Source: a virus (lineage: Duplodnaviria > Heunggongvirae > Uroviricota > Caudoviricetes). Taken from it: 56,670 bases of DNA. A program made the position numbers and the translations under genes. The stretch's first letter is position 1; each line of letters opens with the position of its first letter. The stretch is taken from the IMG/VR virus record IMGVR_UViG_3300045988_159288; one strand, 5' to 3'. This document shows, in pieces, positions 1 through 52,807 of this stretch. A model generated the notes under the pieces. The model saw nothing but the letters and a program-made list of their open reading frames with translations, was not told the DNA's origin and did no database searches.

Positions 1-5149
<5,149 letters not shown>

Positions 5150-12665: not shown

Positions 12666-13277
12666 TTAAAGCGAAAAACTAAAGCCCAGAAGGGAAGCTA
12701 AAGAACTTGAGGATTGGTTAAACGTGCTGTGCAATGCGAAGGTCATTGGGAATGACTTAAATTCCGTAACCTGATCCCGCGCATAGGTGACATCGCCGGT
12801 AGTGACCGGGAATACCGTCATCTCATTTTCCAGTTTGGTTAAACCGGAGGACAGCAACCGATAAATACGCACATTGAGCAAATATTTAGACGGTATATTC
12901 CCGGTACCGTCCGGATTGATCACCCGACTTTTTGCCGTCTTAAACCAGTCCAAAACGAGGCCATCAACGGTATCCCTGACCATCATTGTTATCTGCCCAG
13001 GCGAACGCTCCGTTGGCTGAAGGATATTCCCTCCGCCGATTTTAATCGTTTCATATTCGATGCTGTAATCGTGGTAGGTAATGTCTTTAGCAAAGAAGTC
13101 TGCCCCCTCCAGACCATCAACTTCGACAGAGAACTGCCATCCTTGCGCGAACAGCATTTTGTTCATGATGATTGACGTCAGCTTGCCAACTTCCCGCTCA
13201 CCAACGCCGGAGCCAAATAATGTCGTCGTTAATGCCGAAGATACATAAGACTTTACTGAAGCAACATTAAGCCCCAT
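12666..13277 (-). CDS. Putative tail/baseplate protein
   Basis: 203 aa; in the late operon upstream of the tape-measure gene. Confidence 0.4.
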   Translation of the reverse strand: MGLNVASVKSYVSSALTTTLFGSGVGEREVGKLTSIIMNKMLFAQGWQFSVEVDGLEGADFFAKDITYHDYSIEYETIKIGGGNILQPTERSPGQITMMVRDTVDGLVLDWFKTAKSRVINPDGTGNIPSKYLLNVRIYRLLSSGLTKLENEMTVFPVTTGDVTYARDQVTEFKSFPMTFALHSTFNQSSSSLASLLGFSFSL

Positions 13278-13287
13278 ATCAGCCCCC

Positions 13288-13878
<591 letters not shown>

Positions 13879-13885
13879 TTACCCG

Positions 13886-13907
13886 ATTATACGAGTTGTC
13901 ATTTGTT
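13886..13907 (-). promoter_or_regulatory. Putative phage late promoter (ACAAATGAC-N7-TATAAT)
   Basis: Minus strand reads AACAAATGACaactcgTATAAT, 31 nt before the ATG at 13854. The same motif recurs upstream of two other late operons (26548, 46982). Confidence 0.5.
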
Positions 13908-14007
13908 ACCGGTCAGTCTACACATTTCAGATGCTGCGTTAAAAAACCCAAGTACTTCAAGTAGCACATCATCATCAACACCCAGCCCCAAGATACGGTG
14001 ATAAAAT

Positions 14008-15075
14008 TCAAGCCTTAAGAGGCTTTGTGTATGTTCGTGTAATCCATCCAGTAATAAACTCGTCCCCTGATTTAACCTGCACGAAAAGCCATTGGCGATC
14101 TTTTTTATCTAAAACAGCCACTATAGTATTTTTGCCAATGCATTCAATCACCTCACTATTTATAGAAGGACTGACGTGTAATCTTACGTTCTCACCAGTT
14201 ATAAAACGAAAACCATTGAGATCTTCCCAACTAATTTCTTTGTTTTCTTTAATTAATTGTTGTTTTGATATTGGTTTATCCTCAAACAGAGATATAAAAT
14301 ATGATTCTGCCTTGTGTATTCCCAGCAAGGTTTTCTCTTTTCCGTAATCAATAAAAGCACCAAACACAACTTGAGAAAATATAACCATTAGTAACCATTG
14401 CAGTGGATAAGGAAGCTCTTTAAATGAATCAACAAACTTTGAGCTAGGTTTATTTAATCCTTTATTTTGAACATTACTTTTGGTGTGTGATGTTTCAGTA
14501 GCACCTTCAGCATAAGCCTGCGCAATAGATGAAATCCCCTGCTCTATTATTTGATGTAATGAAGCATTTCTTGTTCTAGCATAGTGATCTAGTACTTTCT
14601 TTATGTCTTGGCTTACATCTATTTTATAACTTGCACTTTGTTGTAATTCTTTAAGTATCGCTTGCATGTTATTTAAACCAGCTTGCTTATTAAGCACCTC
14701 AAGCTGTTTTCGTAATGGCATAGCTATTTCGGCCTGTTTCCTTAGCATTTGAATATATCTATTTGCATCATGAGGGAAAAGAACCTGAGTCTGTTTCTGT
14801 AAAATCGCGATATGTTCACGATACTTGCTGCCTATTCCAGCCAAGTTCGGTATACTAGCCAATTGTTTTCGAAGAGAGTTACTAATTACAGCTTGTCTAT
14901 TCAATCTTGTCATATTTTGAAAAGAATGTTTTTCTATTCCTAATTGTTTTTGCAAGATCGCTACGTGATCTTTGTATGATGGAATGAGCACTGACTGTTT
15001 ATACAGTAACTTCAACTCATTAGAATTAGTAATTTTTGTCATATTATTCCATTTATATAATAGAATATTACGCAA
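14008..15075 (-). CDS. Bitopic membrane protein: helical repeat N-terminus, one TM helix, C-terminal SH3b-like domain
   Basis: 355 aa; repeated xxILQKQ segments; TM LQWLLMVIFSQVVFGAFIDY; C-terminal block GENVRLHVSPS...GDEFITGWI; lies in the AT-rich block. Confidence 0.5.
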   Translation of the reverse strand: MRNILLYKWNNMTKITNSNELKLLYKQSVLIPSYKDHVAILQKQLGIEKHSFQNMTRLNRQAVISNSLRKQLASIPNLAGIGSKYREHIAILQKQTQVLFPHDANRYIQMLRKQAEIAMPLRKQLEVLNKQAGLNNMQAILKELQQSASYKIDVSQDIKKVLDHYARTRNASLHQIIEQGISSIAQAYAEGATETSHTKSNVQNKGLNKPSSKFVDSFKELPYPLQWLLMVIFSQVVFGAFIDYGKEKTLLGIHKAESYFISLFEDKPISKQQLIKENKEISWEDLNGFRFITGENVRLHVSPSINSEVIECIGKNTIVAVLDKKDRQWLFVQVKSGDEFITGWITRTYTKPLKA

Positions 15076-15116
15076 CCAATGTTTTATTGATTGCGTTAAT
15101 CTTTAACACAGAAAGA

Positions 15117-15593
15117 TCATTTGCCTCGTTTAATACATCCATCCATTTTGGCTTGTTGATACAACTTACTTAGCCCAGAAAGAGGGAATGTAGCAATTTT
15201 TTCATTATCAACATAAGCATCAATCATATTAGCATTTGAATCTGCTGCATCTTGCCAAAAGGCATACCACCAAGAATCTCCAACCATTGATCCAAGATTG
15301 CTAAAAGGATATTGCTCACCATCTATAGTTAATACTATTTTATTCTTGTCAGCATTATACTCTTTTTTATTATTCGACGAACTTAGCAACAAGCCTAAAC
15401 TACCTGCACTATCTGGTGAACCATACATGAATCCCATATCACATAAAAAACTTATCTTATCACCATTATGATTATGGATTGTATATTCTCTCCCCCCTCT
15501 CTCTTCAATTACATTCCATTGTAGAGGATCAATTTTTGCAAATGTTCCTGCTGAAACTAACGATACAAATAATAAAAACCATCTCATATTCAT
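15117..15593 (-). CDS. Secreted/periplasmic protein of unknown function
   Basis: 158 aa; N-terminal signal peptide MNMRWFLLFVSLVSAGTFA; two Cys residues; AT-rich codon usage. Confidence 0.5.
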   Translation of the reverse strand: MNMRWFLLFVSLVSAGTFAKIDPLQWNVIEERGGREYTIHNHNGDKISFLCDMGFMYGSPDSAGSLGLLLSSSNNKKEYNADKNKIVLTIDGEQYPFSNLGSMVGDSWWYAFWQDAADSNANMIDAYVDNEKIATFPLSGLSKLYQQAKMDGCIKRGK

Positions 15594-15615
15594 TCTTTTC
15601 GCTTCTTATCTGTAA

Positions 15616-15966
15616 TTATTCTGCAATATCATTTGCCCATTGCACGGCAGCAAAATGAGTACCCAAACCACTCAGGAAAGCAATTACCCCCAAAACAATA
15701 CTTGCTGCTGTTGATTCAAACAAAGTACCAATACTATAGCCAATAGCTCCCCATACTAAGCTAAATACAATCATCAATGGTATTGCTAGAAATTTTATTC
15801 TTAAACTAAAAATCAGTCCAAGAAAAGAACCGCCAAAGGCCCACCATGATTTAGACATTAAACCTATCAGTATTGACAGAATTCCTATTTCAATAAAGAG
15901 AATATTAGATTGCTCTTCATTGAATTTCGCATTTGTTACACCTTTACGAACATGTTCAGATGACAT
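15616..15966 (-). CDS. Small polytopic inner-membrane protein
   Basis: 116 aa with 3-4 hydrophobic helices; RBS AGGAGA before the ATG; first gene of the cassette. Confidence 0.5.
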   Translation of the reverse strand: MSSEHVRKGVTNAKFNEEQSNILFIEIGILSILIGLMSKSWWAFGGSFLGLIFSLRIKFLAIPLMIVFSLVWGAIGYSIGTLFESTAASIVLGVIAFLSGLGTHFAAVQWANDIAE

Positions 15967-16015
15967 GATTAACTATCTCCTGCCACAGATAAAACGCCTT
16001 AAAATAACATTTTGT

Positions 16016-16044
16016 AGCATAAAGTTTCACCATGCAATGGTCAA
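16016..16044 (-). promoter_or_regulatory. Sigma70-type promoter for the AT-rich cassette
   Basis: Minus strand TTGACC (16044-16039), 17-nt spacer, TATGCT (16021-16016); about 45 nt upstream of the ATG at 15966. Confidence 0.5.
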
Positions 16045-16049
16045 AATCT

Positions 16050-16078
16050 TTGACCCATATCAATTAAACTCATACATT
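16050..16078 (+). promoter_or_regulatory. Divergent sigma70-type promoter reading toward the immunity-type module
   Basis: TTGACC (16050-16055), 17-nt spacer, TACATT (16073-16078). Confidence 0.4.
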
Positions 16079-16112
16079 TTAGTTACCAGAGAAATAATTT
16101 ACATGGTTGCAA

Positions 16113-16129
16113 GTTGCTCTAATTATTTT
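16113..16129 (+). promoter_or_regulatory. Degenerate C1-type operator (P1 Op51 position)
   Basis: GTTGCTCTAATTATTTT matches the 17-bp C1 operator consensus ATTGCTCTAATAAATTT at 14 of 17. Confidence 0.45.
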
Positions 16130-16256
16130 ATTTTTTTAGCTTCATATGCTACATTAACTTGCTTGCGTGCTAATGCATTTTCGGTTTATCCTAAACAGGC
16201 ATCTTAGTAAAACGGATGCCGGGATTGGAACCCCGGATAATGCAAAAGGCGACATA

Positions 16257-16278
16257 GACGCCAAAAGCGTCTTTTTTT
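16257..16278 (+). terminator. Intrinsic terminator
   Basis: Hairpin GACGC-caaaa-GCGTC followed by TTTTTTT. Confidence 0.55.
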
Positions 16279-16299
16279 GTGTCATGCCATCGCACAACC

Positions 16300-16440
16300 A
16301 TACGTAGCACATAGCTCCGAGATCAATGGTAGTGCTGGCTGGGCTGCCGAAAGGCAGGCCGGTTCCCTTTTGCGCCGGTAGTCTCAACCCAGTCAGTGCT
16401 ACCGCCATTGAGATTGAGACCTCACGCGGTAGCTCCTTAA
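16300..16440 (+). ncRNA. Structured leader; candidate c4-like antisense RNA region
   Basis: Long imperfect inverted repeat (16319-16338 vs 16393-16417) with nested hairpins. CAATGGTAG at 16323-16331 is nearly complementary to CTGCCATTG at the icd start; TAGCTCC and GCTGCC recur as direct repeats. Confidence 0.3.
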
Positions 16441-16463
16441 ATTAGCAAAAGGAGGCTGCCATT

Positions 16464-16685
16464 GTGGCTACTATCCCTACCCCTACTCATCCTGAATTTA
16501 TCTGGCGCTTTTACTCCTGCCAAAAACACCACTATCACTTCGTTATCGCAGCAACAGAAGACGAAGCACGCTCTCAATTGCCTGATGGCCCCTGCATTTT
16601 TACTGCCCGTTTTTCAACTAACTCGCGCAATTCACTTAGTTACTGGAGCCTCCCCTTCTCTGCCGACGTTCAGGGGGGTTTATGA
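16464..16685 (+). CDS. icd: Small protein translationally coupled to ant (icd-like)
   Basis: 73 aa; GTG start 8 nt after AGGAGG; stop TGA overlaps the ant ATG (ATGA). Confidence 0.5.
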   Translation: MATIPTPTHPEFIWRFYSCQKHHYHFVIAATEDEARSQLPDGPCIFTARFSTNSRNSLSYWSLPFSADVQGGL

Positions 16686-18091
16686 AAACACCTCTCGTCA
16701 CCCGTAATGAAATAGCCGAAGCGATCGCCTTGCATACTGCCTGTATGCCGACACGGGAGATCCCCGGCGCAATTGCTAACTATTTCATGATAACCAGGCG
16801 TTTTTATACCCGAACAGATAAGGCTGTGATCAACAGGCTACTGATAGCCGAGATCAGGGATTATTTGATTGAACAAGGACGTCTACGTTACGCAACAGTG
16901 GCAGCAGAAATGAGAAAGGAGGCACATAGAATGACCGGTAATAATTTGAATGTTGAAAAACCAGCACCTGTTACGTCAGCTACGCCAGCACCAGCCGTGA
17001 ATATTATCCCCAACACCGGAGACACAATCGACAGCCTGACACTGTTAAAGATGGTCAATGAAGCGCGTAAGTTATGTGGGGAACCAGAGGTTCGGAACAA
17101 CAAATTCATCGAAAAAATACTCGACGAATTAGAAGGTGAGGACGGTTACACAAAAAGTGCAACCGTGCCGCCAGGTGGCGGTACGCCTATGGTTGTCATA
17201 ACCATGACCTACAAACAAGCCCTGCGAGTCGCCGCGCGCGAATCGAAAGCGGTCCGCCGTTCGCTACATACCATGATTCAGTCATTGGAACCTATAAATG
17301 TTGAAAATCAGCCTGATGAAATTCCCGTTCTGGAATGGCAGGGAGTACGCGTCGTGACAACCGAGACTCTTGCTAGAGGGTATGGCACTACACCTATTCG
17401 TATTCAGCAGAACTACAATCGCAATGAAGAACGATTTGTAGAGGGTAAACACTTCTTTAAAATCAAAGGAGATGAGATAAAAAGTTTGCGACTATCTTTT
17501 AGCGAGCTGCAAATTTCCCCCAAGACCAGATCCTTAATACTCTGGACCGAACGCGGAGCGGCACGCATGTCTAAGATCGTAGACACAGAGCAAGCGTGGG
17601 CATTCTTTGAAAAACTGGAAGACAGCTACTTCCGACAAAAAGAACAGCAACCGGTCGCAATCCCCCAGACGCTTCCCGAAGCTCTGCGCCTGGCTGCCGA
17701 GCTGGCTGAACAAAAGCAGCTACTGGAACAGAAAACCCACCAGCTAAATCAGCAGCTGGTGGCCGCAGCCCCTAAAGTCGATTTTGCCGACCGGGTATCA
17801 GTGGCTAATGGAATCCTGATCGGGAACTTTGCAAAGGTCGTTGGACTTAAGCAAAACGCCCTTTTCTCATGGTTGCGCCAGAACGGCATTCTCATGGCTT
17901 TTGGTGCGCGCAAAAACGTACCGCGCCAGCAGTACATCAACGCCGGATATTTCACGGTGAAAGAAGTGGTGCTGGATGATGAAAATGGCTACCAGATACG
18001 GCTGACGCCCCAATTAACGGGTAAAGGGCAGCAGTGGTTAACTCGCAAGCTACTTGATGCTGGTTTGTTAAAACCAGTAGCAATAGGTTAA
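16682..18091 (+). CDS. ant: Antirepressor Ant (ORF6N-like N-terminal part plus KilAC/ANT C-terminal domain)
   Basis: 469 aa; C-terminal block LPEALRLAAELAEQKQ...GKGQQWLTRKLLDAG shared with the next gene; in-frame internal Met could yield a shorter isoform. Confidence 0.65.
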   Translation: MKTPLVTRNEIAEAIALHTACMPTREIPGAIANYFMITRRFYTRTDKAVINRLLIAEIRDYLIEQGRLRYATVAAEMRKEAHRMTGNNLNVEKPAPVTSATPAPAVNIIPNTGDTIDSLTLLKMVNEARKLCGEPEVRNNKFIEKILDELEGEDGYTKSATVPPGGGTPMVVITMTYKQALRVAARESKAVRRSLHTMIQSLEPINVENQPDEIPVLEWQGVRVVTTETLARGYGTTPIRIQQNYNRNEERFVEGKHFFKIKGDEIKSLRLSFSELQISPKTRSLILWTERGAARMSKIVDTEQAWAFFEKLEDSYFRQKEQQPVAIPQTLPEALRLAAELAEQKQLLEQKTHQLNQQLVAAAPKVDFADRVSVANGILIGNFAKVVGLKQNALFSWLRQNGILMAFGARKNVPRQQYINAGYFTVKEVVLDDENGYQIRLTPQLTGKGQQWLTRKLLDAGLLKPVAIG

Positions 18092-18102
18092 CAAAAGAAA
18101 AA

Positions 18103-18128
18103 ACCTGCCAGCAAACTGGCAGGTTTCT
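18103..18128 (+). terminator. Terminator-like hairpin after ant
   Basis: 9-bp stem ACCTGCCAG/CTGGCAGGT with a weak T-tract. Confidence 0.4.
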
Positions 18129-18168
18129 GAGCAGATCGACCAACCCGATCTGGATCGAGTCAGAAAAA

Positions 18169-18185
18169 TTTGCTCTAATAAATTT
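18169..18185 (+). promoter_or_regulatory. C1-type operator with embedded promoter (P1 Op53 position)
   Basis: TTTGCTCTAATAAATTT, 16 of 17 to consensus; TTGCTC-N17-TAAGTG promoter overlaps it. Confidence 0.65.
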
Positions 18186-18254
18186 CGTTTTCTAAGTGCA
18201 AAGAATCACCATTTCGAGCTGGTGATTGAAGGTTGATGCAAATTTGGAGAAAAA

Positions 18255-19055
18255 ATGCAACAAACATTCAATGCGGATATGAATATATCAAACCTTCATC
18301 AAAATGTCGATCCTTCAACCACTCTGCCTGTTATTTGTGGTGTTGAAATTACGACCGACCGCGCTGGCCGTTACAACCTTAATGCTCTACACAGAGCGAG
18401 CGGACTCGGTGCCCATAAAGCGCCAGCTCAATGGCTAAGAACGCTGTCAGCCAAACAGCTCATCGAAGAGCTTGAAAAAGAAACTATGCAGAATTGCATA
18501 GTTTCGTTCGAAGGCCGTGGCGGCGGCACTTTTGCCCATGAATTGCTCGCTGTGGAGTACGCAGGCTGGATTTCTCCCGCGTTTCGGCTGAAGGTAAACC
18601 AGACATTTATCGACTATCGAGCTGGAAGATTACAACCTGCTATTCCGCAGAGTCTCCCTGAAGCTCTCCGTTTGGCTGCCGACCTGGCAGAGCAAAAGCA
18701 ACGGCTGGAGCAAAAAATGCTTATGGATGCACCTAAAGTCGAATTCGCCGAACGCGTTGCTACCGCCAGCGGGGTTCTAATCGGCAACTATGCCAAAGTG
18801 CTCGGCCTGGGCCAAAACTATCTCTTCACCTGGTTGCGTGATAACGGAATTCTGATCGCAACCGGTGAACGCAGGAACGTCCCCAAACAAGAATACATAT
18901 CCCGTGGGTATTTCACCCTTAAAGAAACCGTGATCGATACAAGCAATGGAAGCAGGATTTCTTTCACGACTCGTATAACCGGCAAAGGTCAGCAGTGGCT
19001 GATGAAGCGATTGCTTGATGCTGGTGTGCTGGTACCTGTCGCGGCAACGCGCTAA
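18255..19055 (+). CDS. kilA: KilA (KilA-N domain plus KilAC/ANT C-terminal domain)
   Basis: 266 aa; RBS GGAGAAAAA; N-terminal KilA-N-type block; C-terminal domain paralogous to the Ant C-terminus. Confidence 0.6.
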   Translation: MQQTFNADMNISNLHQNVDPSTTLPVICGVEITTDRAGRYNLNALHRASGLGAHKAPAQWLRTLSAKQLIEELEKETMQNCIVSFEGRGGGTFAHELLAVEYAGWISPAFRLKVNQTFIDYRAGRLQPAIPQSLPEALRLAADLAEQKQRLEQKMLMDAPKVEFAERVATASGVLIGNYAKVLGLGQNYLFTWLRDNGILIATGERRNVPKQEYISRGYFTLKETVIDTSNGSRISFTTRITGKGQQWLMKRLLDAGVLVPVAATR

Positions 19056-19084
19056 CAGACGTAGTAAGAACCACCAGCATTGTA

Positions 19085-19930
19085 ATGCTGGCTAAAGTCA
19101 CTTTCCTGAGCTGTATAACGATGAGCGATTTTACTTTTTCTGGCTATGAATTGGCCTGCTTTGTAACACACTCCGGTCTATCCCGTAGCGCCGGGCATAT
19201 CCTGTCGCAATGTGCAAATCTCGCGGCAACAACCAGTGAATACTTCATTCACAAGCCTCACCGCCTGATCGCGGCAGAAACTGGTTATAGCCAATCAACC
19301 GTCGTTCGTGCATTCCGTGAAGCTGTAAACAAAGGAATTCTGTCTGTAGAGATTGTTATCGGCGATCACCGTGAACGTCGCGCTAACCTGTACCGGTTTA
19401 CGCCATCCTTTTTGGCCTTCGCACAACAAGCCAAAAATGCGCTGATTGAAAGCAAATTAAAGATCTCTTCAGCGGCAACCAAGGTTAAAGCTGTTCTCGC
19501 TAAGACATTGGCTTTATTTAATTTTTTATCCACACCCCCATGTCAAAATGATACCCCCTCCCCCTGTCAGGATGACGTGGCAATAAAGAATAAGAAGTCA
19601 CAAGTTAAAAAAACAAAAAGATCAGTTTCCGGCGGTGCCGGAACGAGCAGACTCAAAAAATTGACTTCATGGATCGCTGAGGCAAAAGCAAAGGCTGACA
19701 ATCTGCGGTTATCCAAAAAGCGCGCTCAAAAACATGAGTTCAAGCAGAAAGTAGAGGCGGCAGCGCGGAAATATGCTTACCTGAAGAACAAGCGTTCTCC
19801 TGATATTGGCGGGGTATCAAACTTCGATAATTTGCCGCATTGCATGACGGTAAACGAAGCTCTTAATGCGGTTTTAGCCAAAAATAAAGATAACGAACAA
19901 TGGGGTATACCGGCAGGATTCAGAGGGTGA
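19085..19930 (+). CDS. repL: Lytic replicon initiator RepL-like protein
   Basis: 281 aa; winged-HTH-like N-terminus; directly downstream of kilA as in P1. Confidence 0.5.
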   Translation: MLAKVTFLSCITMSDFTFSGYELACFVTHSGLSRSAGHILSQCANLAATTSEYFIHKPHRLIAAETGYSQSTVVRAFREAVNKGILSVEIVIGDHRERRANLYRFTPSFLAFAQQAKNALIESKLKISSAATKVKAVLAKTLALFNFLSTPPCQNDTPSPCQDDVAIKNKKSQVKKTKRSVSGGAGTSRLKKLTSWIAEAKAKADNLRLSKKRAQKHEFKQKVEAAARKYAYLKNKRSPDIGGVSNFDNLPHCMTVNEALNAVLAKNKDNEQWGIPAGFRG

Positions 19931-19980
19931 TAGATTGCTCTAATCTGGAGTCACCTGGCGTTTTCAGTTTGAGGTCGGAG

Positions 19981-20226
19981 ATGCAATCTGATTTTTTACA
20001 GTTAGCGATCGCTTTTGCAGGATATGTTTGTATTGGCTTCTGTGTATACATGATCAGCCGAAAAATGCTTGTCGATATCGACCGCAAAGAACAAGCAGAG
20101 GAGATCTTAGAATGGATTTTCTTTGGCGCGGTCTGGCCATTAGGGATCATGTTTGCTGCAACATTTCTTCTGATGTGGATATTCACCCTTCCAGGTGATT
20201 TCTATAGAAAAAAAGCCAGACATTGA
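19981..20226 (+). CDS. Small membrane protein (2 TM)
   Basis: ATG preceded by GAGG; two hydrophobic helices. Confidence 0.35.
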   Translation: MQSDFLQLAIAFAGYVCIGFCVYMISRKMLVDIDRKEQAEEILEWIFFGAVWPLGIMFAATFLLMWIFTLPGDFYRKKARH

Positions 20227-20408
20227 TACAATCGTTGCGGGTGCTTGAGGCTATCTGCTTCAGGCATTACCCGAAAAGCAGATAGAAGAAAGCCCCAGAT
20301 AACATTACGCGTCCTGCAAGACGCTTAACATTAATCTGAGGCCATATCTATGCTTAGCATACGTAGATTAACCCTCTCCCCTTTTAAGGAGCAAGGAATT
20401 TTTTACTG

Positions 20409-21005
20409 CTATGCCGCATTTCCAATTATGGATTCAGCGACCAGAACAACCCCATGCTTACTTCGATCTGGGTGTTCACTCCATATCTCGGATTCAGGAA
20501 TACTTACCCCGTCATAGCAAACACGTTCGCCGTCAAACGGGTAATACTGAGCGGCATCGGTGTCAAGGATAAACACTTTTAGCTCGGAAGAGCGACGGGC
20601 GATGTGTTGCCAAAGAGCTTTTCCACCTTCGTATTGCTCATTATCACTGAGCAAAACAACACCAGCTTTTGAGGCTACGGTTTCGTAAACAAAAGTAGCT
20701 AAACCGACATCCCGGACGGTTCCATCAACCACGATACCTTCAATCTGGGCAACATCGCTATCCTCCCAGAACTTCCTTACCAGTACGCCTTCAAGCTGCG
20801 GGCGACGTTGAAGTTCAAGAGTAGCGACAACCTTATGGCGCATATCACCATCGATAATAGAAGGCGCAGCCTCTATTACAGCTGCAAATGGGGTTTTGGA
20901 ATCCCATATAACCTGGTAAAGCACACCTTGGATGGTAACTCCGTCCAGGATCGAAAATCGACGAGCGACAGTACCCGGGGAGTACGACATTGGAATCACA
21001 GCCAT
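20409..21005 (-). CDS. Hypothetical protein
   Basis: Start moved to the internal ATG at 21005 (RBS AAGGGGGA 8 nt upstream); the track start at 21041 has a GAGG only 3 nt upstream. Confidence 0.4.
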   Translation of the reverse strand: MAVIPMSYSPGTVARRFSILDGVTIQGVLYQVIWDSKTPFAAVIEAAPSIIDGDMRHKVVATLELQRRPQLEGVLVRKFWEDSDVAQIEGIVVDGTVRDVGLATFVYETVASKAGVVLLSDNEQYEGGKALWQHIARRSSELKVFILDTDAAQYYPFDGERVCYDGVSIPESEIWSEHPDRSKHGVVLVAESIIGNAA

Positions 21006-21131
21006 TTTAGAGTCCCCCTTTAACAGTACAGGCACAAACATCTACCTCAATAATTGTAGTTTATTAGAACATTAATAATCTAACATAAAACTCCAGACAA
21101 TGTTATCGATGCATGTTTATATAAAATAGTT

Positions 21132-21157
21132 ATAAAAAAAGCTCCCGAAGGAGCTTT
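21132..21157 (-). terminator. Intrinsic terminator closing the head/sheath/tube operon
   Basis: Minus strand hairpin AAAGCTCC-ttcg-GGAGCTTT followed by TTTTTTT. Confidence 0.7.
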
Positions 21158-21176
21158 AAAATACAAGGGATGACTC

Positions 21177-21686
21177 TTAATCCCACTCAATCCAGTTGTA
21201 GACGATACGAAGTGACGGGCGCACAGCGGCAGTCACATCTTCGGTACTAAAGTCGATTGCATCACTGTAGATTTTGCAGTCCAACATTTCAATTGTTGTA
21301 GCAGCTTTTGTCACAGCGTTAACCCCGGAAGATTTGGATTCAGGGGTCGCAGCCATCGTGATATCAACATAGTCCTTCGCCGCAATGCGATCTTTAATGA
21401 ACTGAAGAATATCGCCTTCGATAGTCTCCACGCACTGGACCTGGATTTCCCCGGAGTTACGGATTGGACCGTGCTGGTTGAACTTCACACCATTTGGGCC
21501 ATAGTCCTCCACATCCTCGCGGGTCATTTCAGGGATTTGCGACGTGCGAACCAGTACGCTGATATCTTCATAGCCTGCAAAAGTGAGCTGGAATTCAGAA
21601 GATACCAGTCGTTCGCCTTTGGCCGCGTTGGCAGTATAGCGGCCCTTAATAAATTTACGGTTTCCCTTAGTGTTATTGTGCCCCAT
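21177..21686 (-). CDS. Putative tail tube protein
   Basis: 169 aa; size and position downstream of the sheath gene; RBS AAAGGA. Confidence 0.45.
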   Translation of the reverse strand: MGHNNTKGNRKFIKGRYTANAAKGERLVSSEFQLTFAGYEDISVLVRTSQIPEMTREDVEDYGPNGVKFNQHGPIRNSGEIQVQCVETIEGDILQFIKDRIAAKDYVDITMAATPESKSSGVNAVTKAATTIEMLDCKIYSDAIDFSTEDVTAAVRPSLRIVYNWIEWD

Positions 21687-21697
21687 ATAAAATCCTT

Positions 21698-22279
21698 TTA
21701 CTGGAACGCCCGAACAATATCGGAGCTGTTATATATCGAAGAACCGGTCAACTGGAGGTTGACGGTGTTTTTCAGGAAATATCCATTACTGTCCCTTGGC
21801 GCATCGAGATCAAAACTTAAGTCCTGGATGGCGACATCGGTGATGTTGATCCGGCGACCAATGTTTAGCGTCACGCGCTCCGGGATTCGACCACCAACAT
21901 TGGCCGCTTTTAGTTCCGGGCTAATCATGGCTGTCAACGCGGCGATAGCGCCTGAAACTTCAATGAATGGATTGTTCAAAGCAATGAAAGTTACGGGCAG
22001 CGTGAACGTCGGCGGAGTCCCCCCTTCCCAAACCATTAAGCTATTCCAACGGGCAACAGACGTTGTTTCAGTACCTACTTGCACAAAACCACCCAGAGCA
22101 CCAGAAACAGATCCCATGGACATACCGGTAAATGGCGCTTCCCAATTCTGGGCCATGTTCATTGCCGCTCCCTGGCTGATATATCCGGTAACCTGGTACT
22201 GAGAGTTCGTTAAAGTAACTTTCAGATATGGCGATACACCGTCAGCCTGGCTGTAAACCCCATAAGCTATAGGAGCCAT
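21698..22279 (-). CDS. Tail-associated structural protein (possible second tube-like protein)
   Basis: 193 aa; a hairpin (GGCCGGAgaacTCCGGCC) lies just upstream of its start. Confidence 0.35.
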   Translation of the reverse strand: MAPIAYGVYSQADGVSPYLKVTLTNSQYQVTGYISQGAAMNMAQNWEAPFTGMSMGSVSGALGGFVQVGTETTSVARWNSLMVWEGGTPPTFTLPVTFIALNNPFIEVSGAIAALTAMISPELKAANVGGRIPERVTLNIGRRINITDVAIQDLSFDLDAPRDSNGYFLKNTVNLQLTGSSIYNSSDIVRAFQ

Positions 22280-22314
22280 TCAAGTTAAAGGCCGGAGTTC
22301 TCCGGCCCCCTCCT

Positions 22315-23130
22315 TTAGCCAAGGCGCTTACGGCGCAGTTTCATTGACTTTTTGCGGGCAAGTTTTGCCGCGCCGGTCTGGGCTTTTCGACGCGCTTTTT
22401 TCAGCGCCGATTTTTGAGCCGCAGTCAGACGTTTTTTACGCAGGCGTTTACGGATGAGTTTGATCTCACCGTTACGAACAACCTTCTTAAATGCTTCAGT
22501 CAGCATTTCATCAGAAGTGCCAGCAACAACAAACGCCGCTTCCAGTTCGTCACGGTCGTCGCTATCTAAACCAGCGATAGAGGCACCAACATCGGCAGCA
22601 GCGTCGTCGTCTTCATCGTCAGCCAGTGCTTCGATCAGGTCATCATCTACACCGCATGCTGCGAGGAAGTCAGCAACATTTGCCCATGCTTCGTTATAGG
22701 CATCGTCCTGTTCTTCTGTAACTTCGGAGTCGTCGTCATCAGAGATACCAGCGATAGCCTGAACGAAACCATCAAGGGAGTCGAAAGTCAGATCACCGCT
22801 ATCAGCCCAGGAGAAAACGGCGTCGGCCGCATCACTCAACGCATTCTGCATAGCACTTCGATTTGCAGCTTCCAGAATCATCTGGTGCGCCTGTTCGACG
22901 GTCCATTCTTTACCGTCTTTCCCTTCCAGGATTTGCTCTGGAGCCGGGGCAGATGGAACGTTATCGTTAGTCTGTGCCGCCGGTTCCGGATTATTATTAA
23001 TAGCCGGATCTGTTGGCGGTTCGGCGCTTGCTCGGGCAGACTCCATCAGCTGCACAGGATCAGAGTTCAAAGCGAAACGGGACAGTCCATTCCCCAAAAA
23101 TGCCCCGGATTGAAAAAAGTTTTTGCTCAT
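22315..23130 (-). CDS. Acidic protein with Lys/Arg-rich C-terminal tail
   Basis: 271 aa; long Asp/Glu-rich core followed by KKVVRNGEIKLIRKRLRKKRL...; RBS AAGGGAA. Confidence 0.4.
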   Translation of the reverse strand: MSKNFFQSGAFLGNGLSRFALNSDPVQLMESARASAEPPTDPAINNNPEPAAQTNDNVPSAPAPEQILEGKDGKEWTVEQAHQMILEAANRSAMQNALSDAADAVFSWADSGDLTFDSLDGFVQAIAGISDDDDSEVTEEQDDAYNEAWANVADFLAACGVDDDLIEALADDEDDDAAADVGASIAGLDSDDRDELEAAFVVAGTSDEMLTEAFKKVVRNGEIKLIRKRLRKKRLTAAQKSALKKARRKAQTGAAKLARKKSMKLRRKRLG

Positions 23131-23139
23131 TGTATTCCC

Positions 23140-24729
23140 TTACTTAATAAGCAGCGGTACGCCCTGGATACGACGGGCTACGCCAGTCGGGCAGCAGGCC
23201 CAGACTACTTCCCATTTATCGAATTCCGCCTGCGTAACTTTCAGCACATACGGTTCTGTACCGTCAGCATCGGGATCACGAGGAGCCACCAGAGCGCCGG
23301 AGGCGACAAAGCGATCTAAAAGTTTGGTCATCCCTTTAGTCAGGCCAGCCGCAGTAATACCGTCCGGGCTATGCTTCATCTGTCGGGCTAACTGGACAAA
23401 GAAACGGCTGATTGCATTCATCAGGGATGGGACGTGCTGGAAGTGCAGATAGTTATCCTGCGTGCAGCAAGTTAAAGCATCGTCGATGATCATCTGGCCA
23501 GAGGTGCCAACAGATACTTTATTGAGACGGCCCTTGACCATTGCTTCTTCGTCCGGGGTATCTTCCGGATACAGCGGTTGAATTGACGCACGAGCAATGA
23601 CGGCACGTTCTTCACCAGCCGGTGAGTAATGCCAACCGCCGACATCAGAGTTTTTCTTGACGCCACGAGCTTTCGCCGCATACGCCGCGCCAGACAGACC
23701 GAAGACCACACGGGATTGGGTCCATTTGTCTTTGCAGGAGAACGGGTAGTGATAGACAGAACAGCTTACATAATCGGTACCAAGTAAACCGGTACCCTCA
23801 ACAGCTGTTAGTGCTTCTGCGTACCTTAATGTCGGTTTGACATCAAAGAAGCCATCAATCAGGCGATCTGCACAGATTTTACCTAATGCGGTGATAGCCG
23901 CATTGTCATAGCAGCCCAGGCCAAGAACAGCGGTGTACATGTACGGCGCATTATTCAGCACTTTAACCGCACGCAGGTACGCAGCGGTTGAGATTTTCGA
24001 CTGATCGCCGTTGGTACCGCCAGTGAACGCCAACGATTTTTTGTTTGTTACTTTCGCTGTCGAAATCAGCTCTTCATTAACAACCGCGCGCAGATATTTA
24101 GAACGGGCTTCCAGAGCCGTAGGCAGATAACACAAGCGGCCCATGTCATCTTTCGCTTCTTCCGCCAAAGACACAGTGTGTGTCTCCAGGGTCGTTACCA
24201 CGCCGAGCGAAGTCGTCTGGGTCAGTTTTAAGAGGAAGCGTTCATTACCCGCGCTGTCCGCTGTTGCCGTTTCGATGGTTAACTCACGGGTAGGTGAAAT
24301 ACACGGATCACCATCATCAACGTAGATAGCAAAGGCTTCGCCACTATCAAGTTCAATTTCAGAACCGTATGGCAACGCACTGTAAGCCGGTTCGCCTGAT
24401 TCATCGAACATAATAATCGGGAACTTCGCATCATCCGGAACAGCGCGAACAACATAACCAGACGTTTGCTGAATAGCTTCGTATACATGGCGAATTGGTT
24501 CGAACTGTGAGCCGGAAGACGGCTTCAGCGGTTCGCCGAGAACATCTTCGTAATTGGACTCAGTAACCGCAAGAACAGTAAACGGCTTGCCACGCGCAAA
24601 TACGCCAATACCAGCCCATAAGCTGCTATTTAATGCAACACCGGTAGATAACGTCGCATCGGCATTGATCGGGCTAACCGCGACGCCGGATGCATTACCT
24701 AATGACTGTTGAATTGAATATTGAGACAT
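23140..24729 (-). CDS. Contractile tail sheath protein
   Basis: 529 aa; sheath-like C-terminal region; followed by tube-like genes. Confidence 0.6.
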   Translation of the reverse strand: MSQYSIQQSLGNASGVAVSPINADATLSTGVALNSSLWAGIGVFARGKPFTVLAVTESNYEDVLGEPLKPSSGSQFEPIRHVYEAIQQTSGYVVRAVPDDAKFPIIMFDESGEPAYSALPYGSEIELDSGEAFAIYVDDGDPCISPTRELTIETATADSAGNERFLLKLTQTTSLGVVTTLETHTVSLAEEAKDDMGRLCYLPTALEARSKYLRAVVNEELISTAKVTNKKSLAFTGGTNGDQSKISTAAYLRAVKVLNNAPYMYTAVLGLGCYDNAAITALGKICADRLIDGFFDVKPTLRYAEALTAVEGTGLLGTDYVSCSVYHYPFSCKDKWTQSRVVFGLSGAAYAAKARGVKKNSDVGGWHYSPAGEERAVIARASIQPLYPEDTPDEEAMVKGRLNKVSVGTSGQMIIDDALTCCTQDNYLHFQHVPSLMNAISRFFVQLARQMKHSPDGITAAGLTKGMTKLLDRFVASGALVAPRDPDADGTEPYVLKVTQAEFDKWEVVWACCPTGVARRIQGVPLLIK

Positions 24730-24789
24730 AACTTTCCCTGTTATGCGCCCCGCACGGGGGCGCTATGTTAAACGGAGAACTTCCCCTGA

Positions 24790-50649: not shown

Positions 50650-50666
50650 ATTGCTCTAATAATTCC
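50650..50666 (+). promoter_or_regulatory. C1-type operator (first of an inverted pair)
   Basis: ATTGCTCTAATAATTCC, 14 of 17. Confidence 0.5.
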
Positions 50667-50674
50667 ATATTTTT

Positions 50675-50704
50675 AAAACGTGATGTACACTCATCACGTT
50701 TTTT
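50675..50704 (+). terminator. Intrinsic terminator lying between the two operators
   Basis: AAAACGTGATG-tacac-TCATCACG-TTTTTT. Confidence 0.6.
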
Positions 50705-50715
50705 ATTAGAGCAAT
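50699..50715 (-). promoter_or_regulatory. C1-type operator (second of the inverted pair)
   Basis: Minus strand ATTGCTCTAATAAAAAA, 14 of 17; shares the terminator T-tract. Confidence 0.5.
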
Positions 50716-52284: not shown

Positions 52285-52791
52285 TTGAGTATTTTCAATA
52301 AACACGCACACCAGGAACGTCCGTATATCGTCATAGTTGATATTGATGGAACAATATCAGAGGCAACTGAAGACAGACTGCATTTGCTTCCGCCACCAGG
52401 TAAAGGTGCATTAACAAAGGACTGGAACGAGTTTAATCTCGCCTGTGACACCGATACTCCCATCACTTCAGTTATTGATATGGTGCGCCAGTTATTTAAC
52501 GTTTACACGGTCTGGTTTGTAACCGGGCGCTGTGAGATCGCAAGGGATAAAACACGAGCCTGGCTGCGGAAGTACGTAACAAACGGGGCTGAGCCTTTGC
52601 TATCTATGCGTCCTGCCACCGATGACAGAAATGACGGCCCAGCAAAGATTGATCTCCTTAAGAAAATTGGTCTAAGTAAAATCGCGTTCGCGCTGGAAGA
52701 TAAGATTGAAGTGGCGCGTGTTTTCAGGAGGCACGGCGTGCTTACGTTAATGGTCAGGGAGTATGAAAATGCGCTTCTTCATCAACAATGA
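52285..52791 (+). CDS. HAD-superfamily phosphatase-like protein
   Basis: 168 aa; motif I IVIVDIDGT near the N-terminus. Confidence 0.5.
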   Translation: MSIFNKHAHQERPYIVIVDIDGTISEATEDRLHLLPPPGKGALTKDWNEFNLACDTDTPITSVIDMVRQLFNVYTVWFVTGRCEIARDKTRAWLRKYVTNGAEPLLSMRPATDDRNDGPAKIDLLKKIGLSKIAFALEDKIEVARVFRRHGVLTLMVREYENALLHQQ

Positions 52792-52807
52792 TTGCTCTAA
52801 TAAATCT
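52791..52807 (+). promoter_or_regulatory. C1-type operator with embedded promoter
   Basis: ATTGCTCTAATAAATCT, 16 of 17; TTGCTC-N17-TAAAAC. Confidence 0.65.

Follow-up and report, generated by a model that had tools for sequence, protein, structure and literature searches.

A probable immI control region in a P1-like phage-plasmid: an IsrK-C4 antisense-RNA module upstream of icd and ant

The logic by which the RNA c4 and the genes icd and ant act together in phage P1 has been described (PMC8198154), and IsrK has been equated with seqA and C4 with CI, as parts of one immunity system that is found in P4, P1, P7, N15 and lambdoid prophages (PMC3632133). The short IsrK RNA of Gifsy-1 acts in trans on the read-through transcript, from which it activates translation of an anti-repressor (PMC4825925). 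Here we consider positions 15967-16700 of a 56,670-nucleotide (nt) stretch of Caudoviricetes DNA (IMG/VR record IMGVR_UViG_3300045988_159288), the whole of which is referred to below as the window. We identify this interval with high confidence as the control region for secondary immunity (immI) of a P1-like phage-plasmid, where an IsrK-C4 antisense-RNA module prevents expression of the anti-repressor Ant in the lysogen. The window in its entirety is a P1-like phage-plasmid. Systems of this kind are already known, and the present element is a further member, which carries a D6/JL22-type specificity on a P1-type icd-ant backbone.

Two adjoining RNAs and the genes that follow them

The interval sits between a minus-strand open reading frame (ORF) of 116 amino acids (aa; 15616-15966) and the anti-repressor gene ant. 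When the whole window was scanned with Rfam at the gathering thresholds, two adjoining matches were found within it, isrK and then C4. A preliminary description had called this a P1 immI-type region with a c4-like antisense RNA over coupled icd and ant genes, and that call is borne out by the likeness to c4-type RNAs (a C4 match of 75 bits against a gathering score of 45), by the homology of icd, ant1 and ant2 to those of P1 and by an operator resembling Op51. The non-coding stretch, which had been put at about 700 base pairs (bp), is actually of about 497 bp (15967-16463), the remainder of the interval being icd. The principal features are the following.

16113-16129, plus strand: homologue of a C1 repressor operator (the Op51/Oc4 equivalent), GTTGCTCTAATTATTTT, 14 of 17 positions matching the consensus ATTGCTCTAATAAATTT
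16199-16277, plus strand: IsrK / c4-a1b1 (P4 seqA)-type leader RNA, Rfam RF01394, 58.3 bits against a gathering score of 50
16256-16278, plus strand: intrinsic terminator of the leader, AGACGC-CAAAA-GCGTCT and a run of T, forming the 3' part of the isrK model
16322-16409, plus strand: C4 antisense RNA, Rfam RF01695, 75.0 bits against a gathering score of 45, E=7e-13, full-length model 1-87
16464-16685, plus strand: icd, 73 aa, GTG start, NCBIfam NF033153, 52.8 bits against a cut-off of 25
16682-18091, plus strand: ant1, 469 aa, overlapping the icd stop in ATGA (16682-16685)
16931, plus strand: ATG of ant2, an in-frame internal start with the Shine-Dalgarno sequence AAGGAGG at 16916-16922 and the same 249-nt offset as in P1

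The C4 RNA has a 17-bp stem with arms at 16327-16343 and 16388-16404, together with hairpin 1 (16344-16357), hairpin 2 (16358-16379) and a junction of 8 nt (16380-16387), and the minimum free energy (MFE) fold, at -46.6 kcal/mol, has this same architecture. The GC-rich element with a long imperfect inverted repeat that had been noticed in the preliminary description is this RNA. Fifteen loci were aligned, drawn from P1, P7, D6, JL22, RCS47, 673R5, six Shiga toxin (Stx)/lambdoid phages, APSE-1 and P4. In this alignment the 27 pairs of the intramolecular stem are paired in 100% of the cells and 14 of the 27 show compensatory changes. By alignment to the annotated 77-nt c4 of P1, the mature RNA is predicted to extend from about 16328 to 16406 (about 79 nt).

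The leader adjoins C4, lying 44 nt upstream of it, and the family to which it belongs is represented in Rfam by two models, RF01394 (isrK) and RF03163 (c4-a1b1). Its fold comprises hairpin 1, hairpin 2 (approximately 16219-16236) with the site a1 in the loop, a single-stranded linker with the site b1, and the intrinsic terminator. The presence of a terminator had been recognized before, and its stem (16256-16272) is indeed followed by a T-run; its membership in an IsrK/a1b1-type leader had been missed. An isrK/a1b1 element stands upstream of C4 in all 15 of the loci examined. Beyond some weak matches to the consensus, no separate promoter was detected for c4, icd and ant, so that transcription must logically read through the leader terminator to reach them. 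Partial read-through of such a terminator has been shown only for the IsrK of Gifsy-1 (PMC4825925). In one deposited record of an Stx phage, "isrK" and "C4" are annotated next to each other.

From 16491 onward the DNA of icd, ant1 and ant2 is 93-95% identical to that of P1. Icd, an inhibitor of cell division, is identical to its P1 counterpart at 64 of 73 residues, the first 10 or so codons being of the D6/JL22 type and the rest of the P1 type, and a Pfam search with this protein returned no match. The 73-aa ORF ending in an ATGA overlap with ant, as previously described, corresponds to icd at 16464-16685 and ant at 16682. Ant is the Ant1/Ant2 of P1 enlarged by an inserted segment, about 120 aa long, that contains an ORF6N domain, and both ORF6N and KilAC domains were found in the protein. 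The insertion (17266-17659; ORF6N is Pfam PF10543, 73.7 bits) is encoded by DNA about 81% identical to the JL22 "roi" gene; in one relative the annotation program PGAP calls only the C-terminal 272 aa of Ant. The genes kilA and repL come after ant.

The operator had been reported earlier as a 14/17 match and this holds at 16113-16129. Its counterparts in alignments are the annotated operators Op51/Oc4 (P1) and Op(c4) (P7), and it overlaps promoter-like hexamers. In the window as a whole there are 9 sites resembling the P1 C1 operator consensus, compared with 0.3 expected.

The plan is shared with immI of P1 and P7: the order Op51, P51a/b, a1, b1, c4, a2, b2, icd, ant1/ant2 is the same, as are the position of the C1 operator, the c4 architecture with b' in the loop of hairpin 2 and a' in the junction, the placement of b2 on the icd ribosome-binding site, the 73-aa icd with its ATGA overlap to ant1, the ant2 start 249 nt into ant1 and the neighbours kilA and repL. 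In contrast, there is no alignment to P1 upstream of 16491, and the leader, c4, its targets and the first 10 or so icd codons of the window are not P1/P7-like. The a'/a2 contact reads GUCUCAA/UUGAGAC in the window and CUGUCAA/UUGACAG in P1, and the b'/b2 contact CCUUUUGC/GCAAAAGG compared with CACUAAC/GUUAGUG. Unlike those of P1 and P7, the window's leader scores as isrK and not as c4-a1b1, its icd starts with GTG and its Ant has the extra ORF6N domain. The operator has three mismatches, compared with one in P1, and the sim genes found upstream in P1 are replaced by other small membrane or secreted proteins.

Contacts between c4 and the icd leader

The P1 record annotates a1, b1, c4, a2 and b2, and the contacts in the window were assigned by homology to these and by covariation. 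The role of a1 and b1 is still marked "putative" in that record. The sites concerned are listed here.

16225-16231, plus strand: a1 site, TTGGAAC, unmatched to the element's own a'
16242-16249, plus strand: b1 site, GCAAAAGG, identical to b2 and complementary to b' (duplex -12.6 kcal/mol)
16366-16373, plus strand: b', CCTTTTGC (RNA CCUUUUGC), in the loop of c4 hairpin 2, pairing with b2 and b1
16381-16387, plus strand: a', GTCTCAA, in the single-stranded c4 junction, pairing with a2
16414-16420, plus strand: a2 target, TTGAGAC, in the icd leader, positional homologue of the annotated P1 a2
16426-16433, plus strand: GCGGTAGC (RNA GCGGUAGC), complementary to the c4 3' arm at 16398-16405
16445-16452, plus strand: b2 target, GCAAAAGG, overlapping the icd Shine-Dalgarno sequence AAGGAGG (16449-16455)

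In all 15 aligned loci b', the loop of hairpin 2, has its complement b2 at the ribosome-binding site of whichever gene comes first downstream, and in all 15 the junction (a') is complementary to a2 just 3' of c4, with the copies a1 and b1 in the leader. The contact sequences vary between phages but change in concert. Within the ensemble of c4 structures b' has a probability of 0.87 of being unpaired and a' one of 0.99, the respective duplexes with b2 and a2 having energies of -12.4 and -9.1 kcal/mol; 8 of 9 b'/b2 pairs and 6 of 7 a'/a2 pairs covary. When the c4 fold is taken together with a'/a2 and b'/b2, 97.1% of the cells are paired and 28 of the 43 pairs are compensatory. None of 500 shuffles matches this, and slid controls give 30-48%. 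Among 73 loci of this subfamily (72 from IMG/VR and the window) both contacts are matched without exception, and the four matched types, with 26, 19, 18 and 7 loci, form a two-by-two array of two a and two b variants. On this sequence evidence, the working contacts are b'/b2 and a'/a2. Whole-molecule duplex and cofold energies were disregarded, because they ignore or barely change the intramolecular folds.

A further helix, between 16398-16405 and 16426-16433, is paired in 93.8% of the cells, with compensatory changes at 6 of its 8 pairs; no shuffle of 500 equals it and the slid controls do not exceed 67%. It would represent an alternative in the unprocessed transcript that competes with the closing stem of c4 and displays a2 in a 20-nt loop. 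Combined with a'/a2, this helix has the topology of a pseudoknot.

The preliminary description had favored another pairing. The segment CAATGGTAG on which it relied is present at 16324-16332, one base away from where it had been placed, and CTGCCATTG is at 16456-16464; as a regulatory contact, the 5' end of c4 (CAAUGGUAG) would pair with the icd start region (CUGCCAUUG) and so mask the GUG. The 9-bp complementarity exists, includes one G-U pair and has an energy of -11.0 kcal/mol in isolation, which a shuffled 19-nt 5' segment attains in only 2.8% of trials. The equivalent columns are pairable in 83% of the cells across the 15 loci, and the start region GGCUGCCAUNAUGGCUAC is strikingly conserved whichever gene comes next (for Icd, Rha or Ant). 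This percentage arises, however, because the columns are conserved: there is a single compensatory cell, a count reached by 322 of 500 shuffles, while the percentage itself is attained by 31 of 500 and a control slid by +3 pairs as well (85.7%). Moreover, the c4 side is buried within the 17-bp stem, where its probability of being unpaired is 0.001, four of the nine bases (16324-16327) precede the 5' end predicted for the mature RNA by alignment to P1 c4, P1 lacks the complementarity, and every one of 1000 shuffled whole c4 sequences forms a duplex of -11 kcal/mol or lower with the icd initiation region. The absence of covariation, the burial in the stem, the position of part of the segment outside the predicted mature RNA and an energy at the level of chance led us to reject this duplex as a regulatory contact, a role that we regard as very unlikely. 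The icd start region resembles the c4 3' arm, with which 16426-16433 covaries, and this is the likely reason that the 5' arm appears complementary to it.

It was also necessary to consider that the GC-rich element might be mainly protein-coding. A 39-aa ORF ("ash"; compare orf45 of Gifsy-1) occupies 16326-16445, and its translation could open the downstream structure and couple ribosomes into icd. PGAP calls this ORF in near-identical plasmids, and in Gifsy-1 mutation of orf45, or a stop within it, lowered the IsrK-dependent translation of anrP (PMC4825925). The AUG is invariant at c4 position 5 (window 16326; alignment columns 5-7) and shares its frame with the downstream start (16464; columns 147-149), exactly 138 nt away, in 12 of the 15 loci; the frame stays open into the downstream gene in 7 loci. 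On the other hand, the length of the ORF is not conserved (14 aa in P1, 15 in APSE-1, 31 in P7, 37-39 in others, or running into the downstream gene) and its substitutions obey RNA base-pairing rules, two features on which it was rejected as the primary function. No family model matches the 39-aa peptide, only a weak GAG is found upstream of the AUG at 16326, and the name "ash" derives from an old annotation of P4, in a region that is a C4-family RNA by Rfam (the CI RNA). We consider a chiefly coding role very unlikely, although occasional translation of the unprocessed transcript from this ORF may play a part.

In the near-identical plasmids PGAP places its 39-aa "ash family protein" coding sequence (WP_001396852.1) exactly over c4 (16326-16445, plus strand), for example at 4227-4346 of locus L015 and at 727-846 of both L016 and L017. 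This looks like a systematic mis-annotation, inherited from the P4 "put. ash gene", whose region scores as a C4-family RNA in Rfam and is known in the P4 literature as CI RNA (PMC3632133). In dozens of plasmids the "ash family protein" coding sequence should be corrected to c4 RNA.

The unmatched a1 site

The leader, c4, its targets and the 5' end of icd are of the D6 type (88.7%) or the JL22/RCS47 type, and homology to P1 begins at about 16491, inside icd. The window's a' and b' differ from those of both P1 and P7 and equal those of D6 and JL22, so that the immunity specificity is not that of P1 or P7. D6 and the second module of JL22 and RCS47 share with the window a', b', a2, b2, b1 and the icd 5' end, the c4 of D6 differing by one base and that of JL22 being identical; with JL22 the window further shares the operator and promoters, from 16114. 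They are unlike the window in the spacer between leader and c4, and in a1, which is UUGAGAC in these elements and matches their a', whereas the window has UUGGAAC. D6 is without the C1 operator, and the second module of JL22 and RCS47 occupies another position, between pacB and c1, where it drives a Roi/Ant-type protein. The window does not cover the genome region between c1 and pacB.

A complete second module of this kind (IsrK, C4, Icd and anti-repressor) is found between c1 and pacB in many P1-like elements, including JL22 (L003, 2591-3100), RCS47 (L014), 673R5 (L007), the contig end L080 and pEC13-3 (L093, 10240-10640, minus strand; NZ_CP060930.1, approximately 57240-57640). In pEC13-3 the specificity of the second module, with UUGGCCU for a and GUCUAAGG for b, is orthogonal to that of the immI module of the same plasmid.

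The region 15600-17000 is found at an identity of at least 98% in 50-65 sequenced plasmids, nearly all of them from E. coli. The closest of them (for example NZ_CP069570.1, pEC13-3 and pFORC64.1) are 99.7% identical to the window over this region and have the same flanking genes, leader, a1, b sites, icd and ant, but they possess a' GUUCCAA and a2 UUGGAAC and therefore a matched a1/a'/a2 triple. In 1401 positions the window and NZ_CP069570.1 show only four differences, two of which are in a' (16383-16384) and two in a2 (16417-16418). The window has an a' and an a2 of the D6/JL22 type but keeps UUGGAAC as a1. The leader carries a b1 copy equal to b2, and a1 differs from a2 (UUGAGAC) at two positions. 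Among the 73 loci a1 equals a2 in 70 and is unmatched in three only: the window, L020 and the reciprocal L091. The control region of L020 is identical to that of the window, and the two differ by 1.6% over 7 kb. In L091 (IMGVR_UViG_2778261639_000014, 13042-25936) a1 is UUGAGAC and a'/a2 are GUUCCAA/UUGGAAC; in this locus the pacB-side leader of "module 2" is joined to a P1-type ant-kilA-repL, which would represent either a module rearrangement or a chimeric assembly.

Two explanations for the four bases, both of them plausible, were weighed against each other. The mismatch may not be biological at all, having arisen by collapse, during assembly, of two near-identical c4 cassettes from the same genome, an explanation to which we attach a substantial probability, if something less than an even one. 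On the two sides of the variant bases (16383, 16384, 16417 and 16418) the module types have 64 and 66 nt of identical sequence, so that a graph with a short k (k=55) could thread the wrong cassette into the immI flanks. L020, the sole other occurrence of the hybrid, is one end of a metagenome contig, which at its opposite end (L080) carries a second module of the JL22 type, adjacent to pacB; the two ends stop at the same base, equivalent to window 16484, and matching contig ends of this sort are the signature of a repeat-induced assembly break. The window's combination of a1 and a' was found in no GTDB representative genome and in no JGI metagenome contig, and once in IMG/VR, at that contig end. 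No identical full-length copy is present in 331 PLSDB plasmids or in 304 RefSeq complete E. coli records of the family. Several points oppose a collapse. The window reads through both junctions and returns to immI-type sequence downstream, positions 16485 and 16491 being of the immI and not the JL22 type. The 1.6% divergence from L020 implies that the allele has been seen in two different elements. In addition, the swap preserves function, a' and a2 having moved together, as would be expected of a viable recombinant, and gene conversion over a short patch, between modules that reside together, is a plausible biological event.

The other explanation, which we put forward tentatively as a real though lesser possibility, is that the four-base difference is genuine and reflects a gene-conversion patch of 36-166 bp. 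The donor would have been a co-resident second IsrK-C4-Icd-Ant module of the c1-pacB type (as in JL22, RCS47, 673R5 and pEC13-3), a' and a2 having been transferred as one cassette with a1 left behind. If this is true, the window carries a natural separation-of-function allele, in which the a'/a2 pairing is indispensable and the a1 pairing is not. The c4 RNA would then be only weakly titrated by its own IsrK-like leader, and the lysogen would be harder to induce through Ant. Taken with the two-by-two array of matched a and b types, it would also mean that immI specificities diversify combinatorially by cassette exchange.

Proposed mechanism, surroundings and implications

Candidate promoters for the module were located by a consensus scan and by alignment to P1.

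16044-16016, minus strand, and 16050-16078, plus strand: divergent sigma-70-like promoter matches, consensus scan, 9/12 each
16098-16126, plus strand: candidate promoter overlapping the operator, TTTACA-17-AATTAT, with its -10 inside the operator
16127-16155, plus strand: putative positional homologue of P1 P51a/P2c4 from alignment to the annotated P1 promoters, -35 TTTATT (16127-16132), -10 TACATT (16150-16155)
16163-16192, plus strand: putative positional homologue of P1 P51b/P1c4 from the same alignment, -35 TTGCGT (16163-16168), 18-nt spacer, -10 TATCCT (16187-16192)

The scan gave 5 promoter sites, compared with 1.8 +/- 1.3 in shuffles. Back-to-back promoters had been described previously and the two divergent sites are present, although each is only a 9/12 match to the consensus. 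They share a 17-nt palindrome, GGTCAAA-ATC-TTTGACC (16039-16055), and the minus-strand match would drive the 116-aa ORF at 15616-15966. For the homologue of P51b/P1c4, GGTTTATCCT faces GGCTTATAGT in the alignment, the annotated -10 of P1. The homologue of P51b/P1c4 predicts a start near G16199, which is exactly where the isrK model begins.

On the observed identities of the RNAs and genes, their complementarities and their covariation, homology to the described systems suggests how promoters, processing, translational block, coupling, Rho-type polarity and decoy action would be combined. Transcription would begin from promoters just downstream of, or overlapping, the C1 operator at 16113-16129, probably near 16199, one promoter being C1-controlled and another constitutive, as in the homologous systems. 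The first 79 nt would fold as the IsrK/a1b1-type leader with its intrinsic terminator, at which some transcripts would stop while others read through. The read-through RNA would contain c4, to be excised as a stable RNA of about 79 nt, with a 5' end formed by RNase P by analogy with P1. This c4 would present b' in a hairpin loop and a' in the single-stranded junction, so as to bind b2 and a2, respectively, on the messenger RNA (mRNA) of the same operon; its antisense action in P1 is reported to have been established by Citron and Schuster in 1990. Because b2 overlaps the icd ribosome-binding site, icd would remain untranslated. The ant1 start lies inside the icd stop (ATGA) and would depend on icd translation; with icd untranslated, and with premature termination of such mRNA as in P1, Ant1 and Ant2 would not be made and C1 would stay active. 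The specificity would reside in a' and b', which are here of the D6/JL22 type, and the element should therefore be heteroimmune to P1 and P7.

The a1 and b1 sites of the leader would provide a second copy of the targets. The short RNA could titrate c4, as an IsrK-type RNA, or serve as an upstream target, as does seqA of P4. The arrangement in Gifsy-1 of Salmonella (IsrK, STnc1160/orf45 and AnrP) is like that of the window in having a leader small RNA with a terminator (Rfam isrK), then a processed stable RNA and then an anti-repressor, an mRNA made by read-through of the leader terminator, and a short IsrK that shares complementarity with the downstream RNA (PMC4825925). It is unlike the window in that the downstream element was read by the authors as a 45-codon ORF and in that activation by IsrK in trans was shown there (PMC4825925). 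Gifsy-1 also lacks an icd, and its anti-repressor induces AntQ. A comparable trans-activation in the window would be weaker, if it occurs at all, since a1 is mismatched. In P4 (seqA, CI RNA and seqC) Rfam likewise finds isrK and then C4, with a matched triple GUGAGAA/UUCUCAC/GUGAGAA and matched b sites; in this case, however, the outcome according to the literature is premature transcription termination of the replication genes, there is no icd or ant, and the spacer between leader and CI is longer (107 nt).

Several points weigh against this assignment and the mechanism proposed for it. Three positions of the operator are mismatched, and the hexamers of the homologous promoters are weak, each agreeing with the consensus at 3-4 of 6 positions. 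The duplex of a1 with the window's own a' has an energy of -2.8 kcal/mol, compared with -8.8 for a1 with the a' of the closest relatives, and the leader-c4 interaction would as a consequence rest on b1 alone. A hairpin in the predicted MFE structure that sequesters the icd Shine-Dalgarno sequence (16427-16437 with 16449-16459) is 77.9% paired, 48 of 500 shuffles being as good, and it is kept only as a possibility suggested by the fold prediction. Finally, the processing of c4 by RNase P, reportedly described for P1 by Hartmann et al. in 1995, and the transcriptional polarity that follows translational repression, reportedly described by Biere, Citron and Schuster in 1992, would be carried over to the present element from P1, as would the Rho-dependence of that polarity.

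The sim operon that lies upstream of c4 in P1 is replaced at 14008-15966 (minus strand) by three unrelated ORFs, one of 116 aa that is hydrophobic, one of 158 aa with a signal-like N-terminus and one of 355 aa with a C-terminal SH3_3 domain; the Pfam search of these upstream ORFs is recorded as without a match, although the SH3_3 domain is listed for the 355-aa ORF. P7 too has other membrane or lipoprotein genes at the sim position. Eight more sites resembling the C1 operator, with 0-3 mismatches, are located at 18169-18185, 33315-33331, 36591-36618, 47025-47041, 50650-50715 and 52791-52807. One of them is the equivalent of Op53, which precedes kilA, and at 36591-36618 two sites overlap in inverted orientation. 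Just downstream of repL there is an Rfam match to the sok antitoxin (20239-20413, plus strand; 94.7 bits, cut-off 59), and among the ORFs of at least 25 aa in 20150-20750 none is evidently Hok-like. P1 itself is not known to carry hok/sok. Three tRNA genes (37276-37348, 37354-37426 and 39430-39502, all on the plus strand) agree in number and arrangement with the tRNA-Asn, -Thr and -Ile annotated in pEC13-3.

Recognition of the immI region, a textbook antisense-RNA immunity switch, provides a dependable marker of a P1-like phage-plasmid. For superinfection, immunity is expected to elements of the D6/JL22 type and heteroimmunity to P1 and P7. The closest sister plasmids differ from the window in the a contact (a'/a2) and have an identical b'/b2, and cross-repression between them is therefore uncertain. 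The evolutionary value of the locus is that one close clade displays four matched a/b combinations, within which a'/a2 is never mismatched (73 of 73 loci) and a1 occasionally is. If the a1 mismatch is real, it would constitute natural evidence on which of these contacts are essential.

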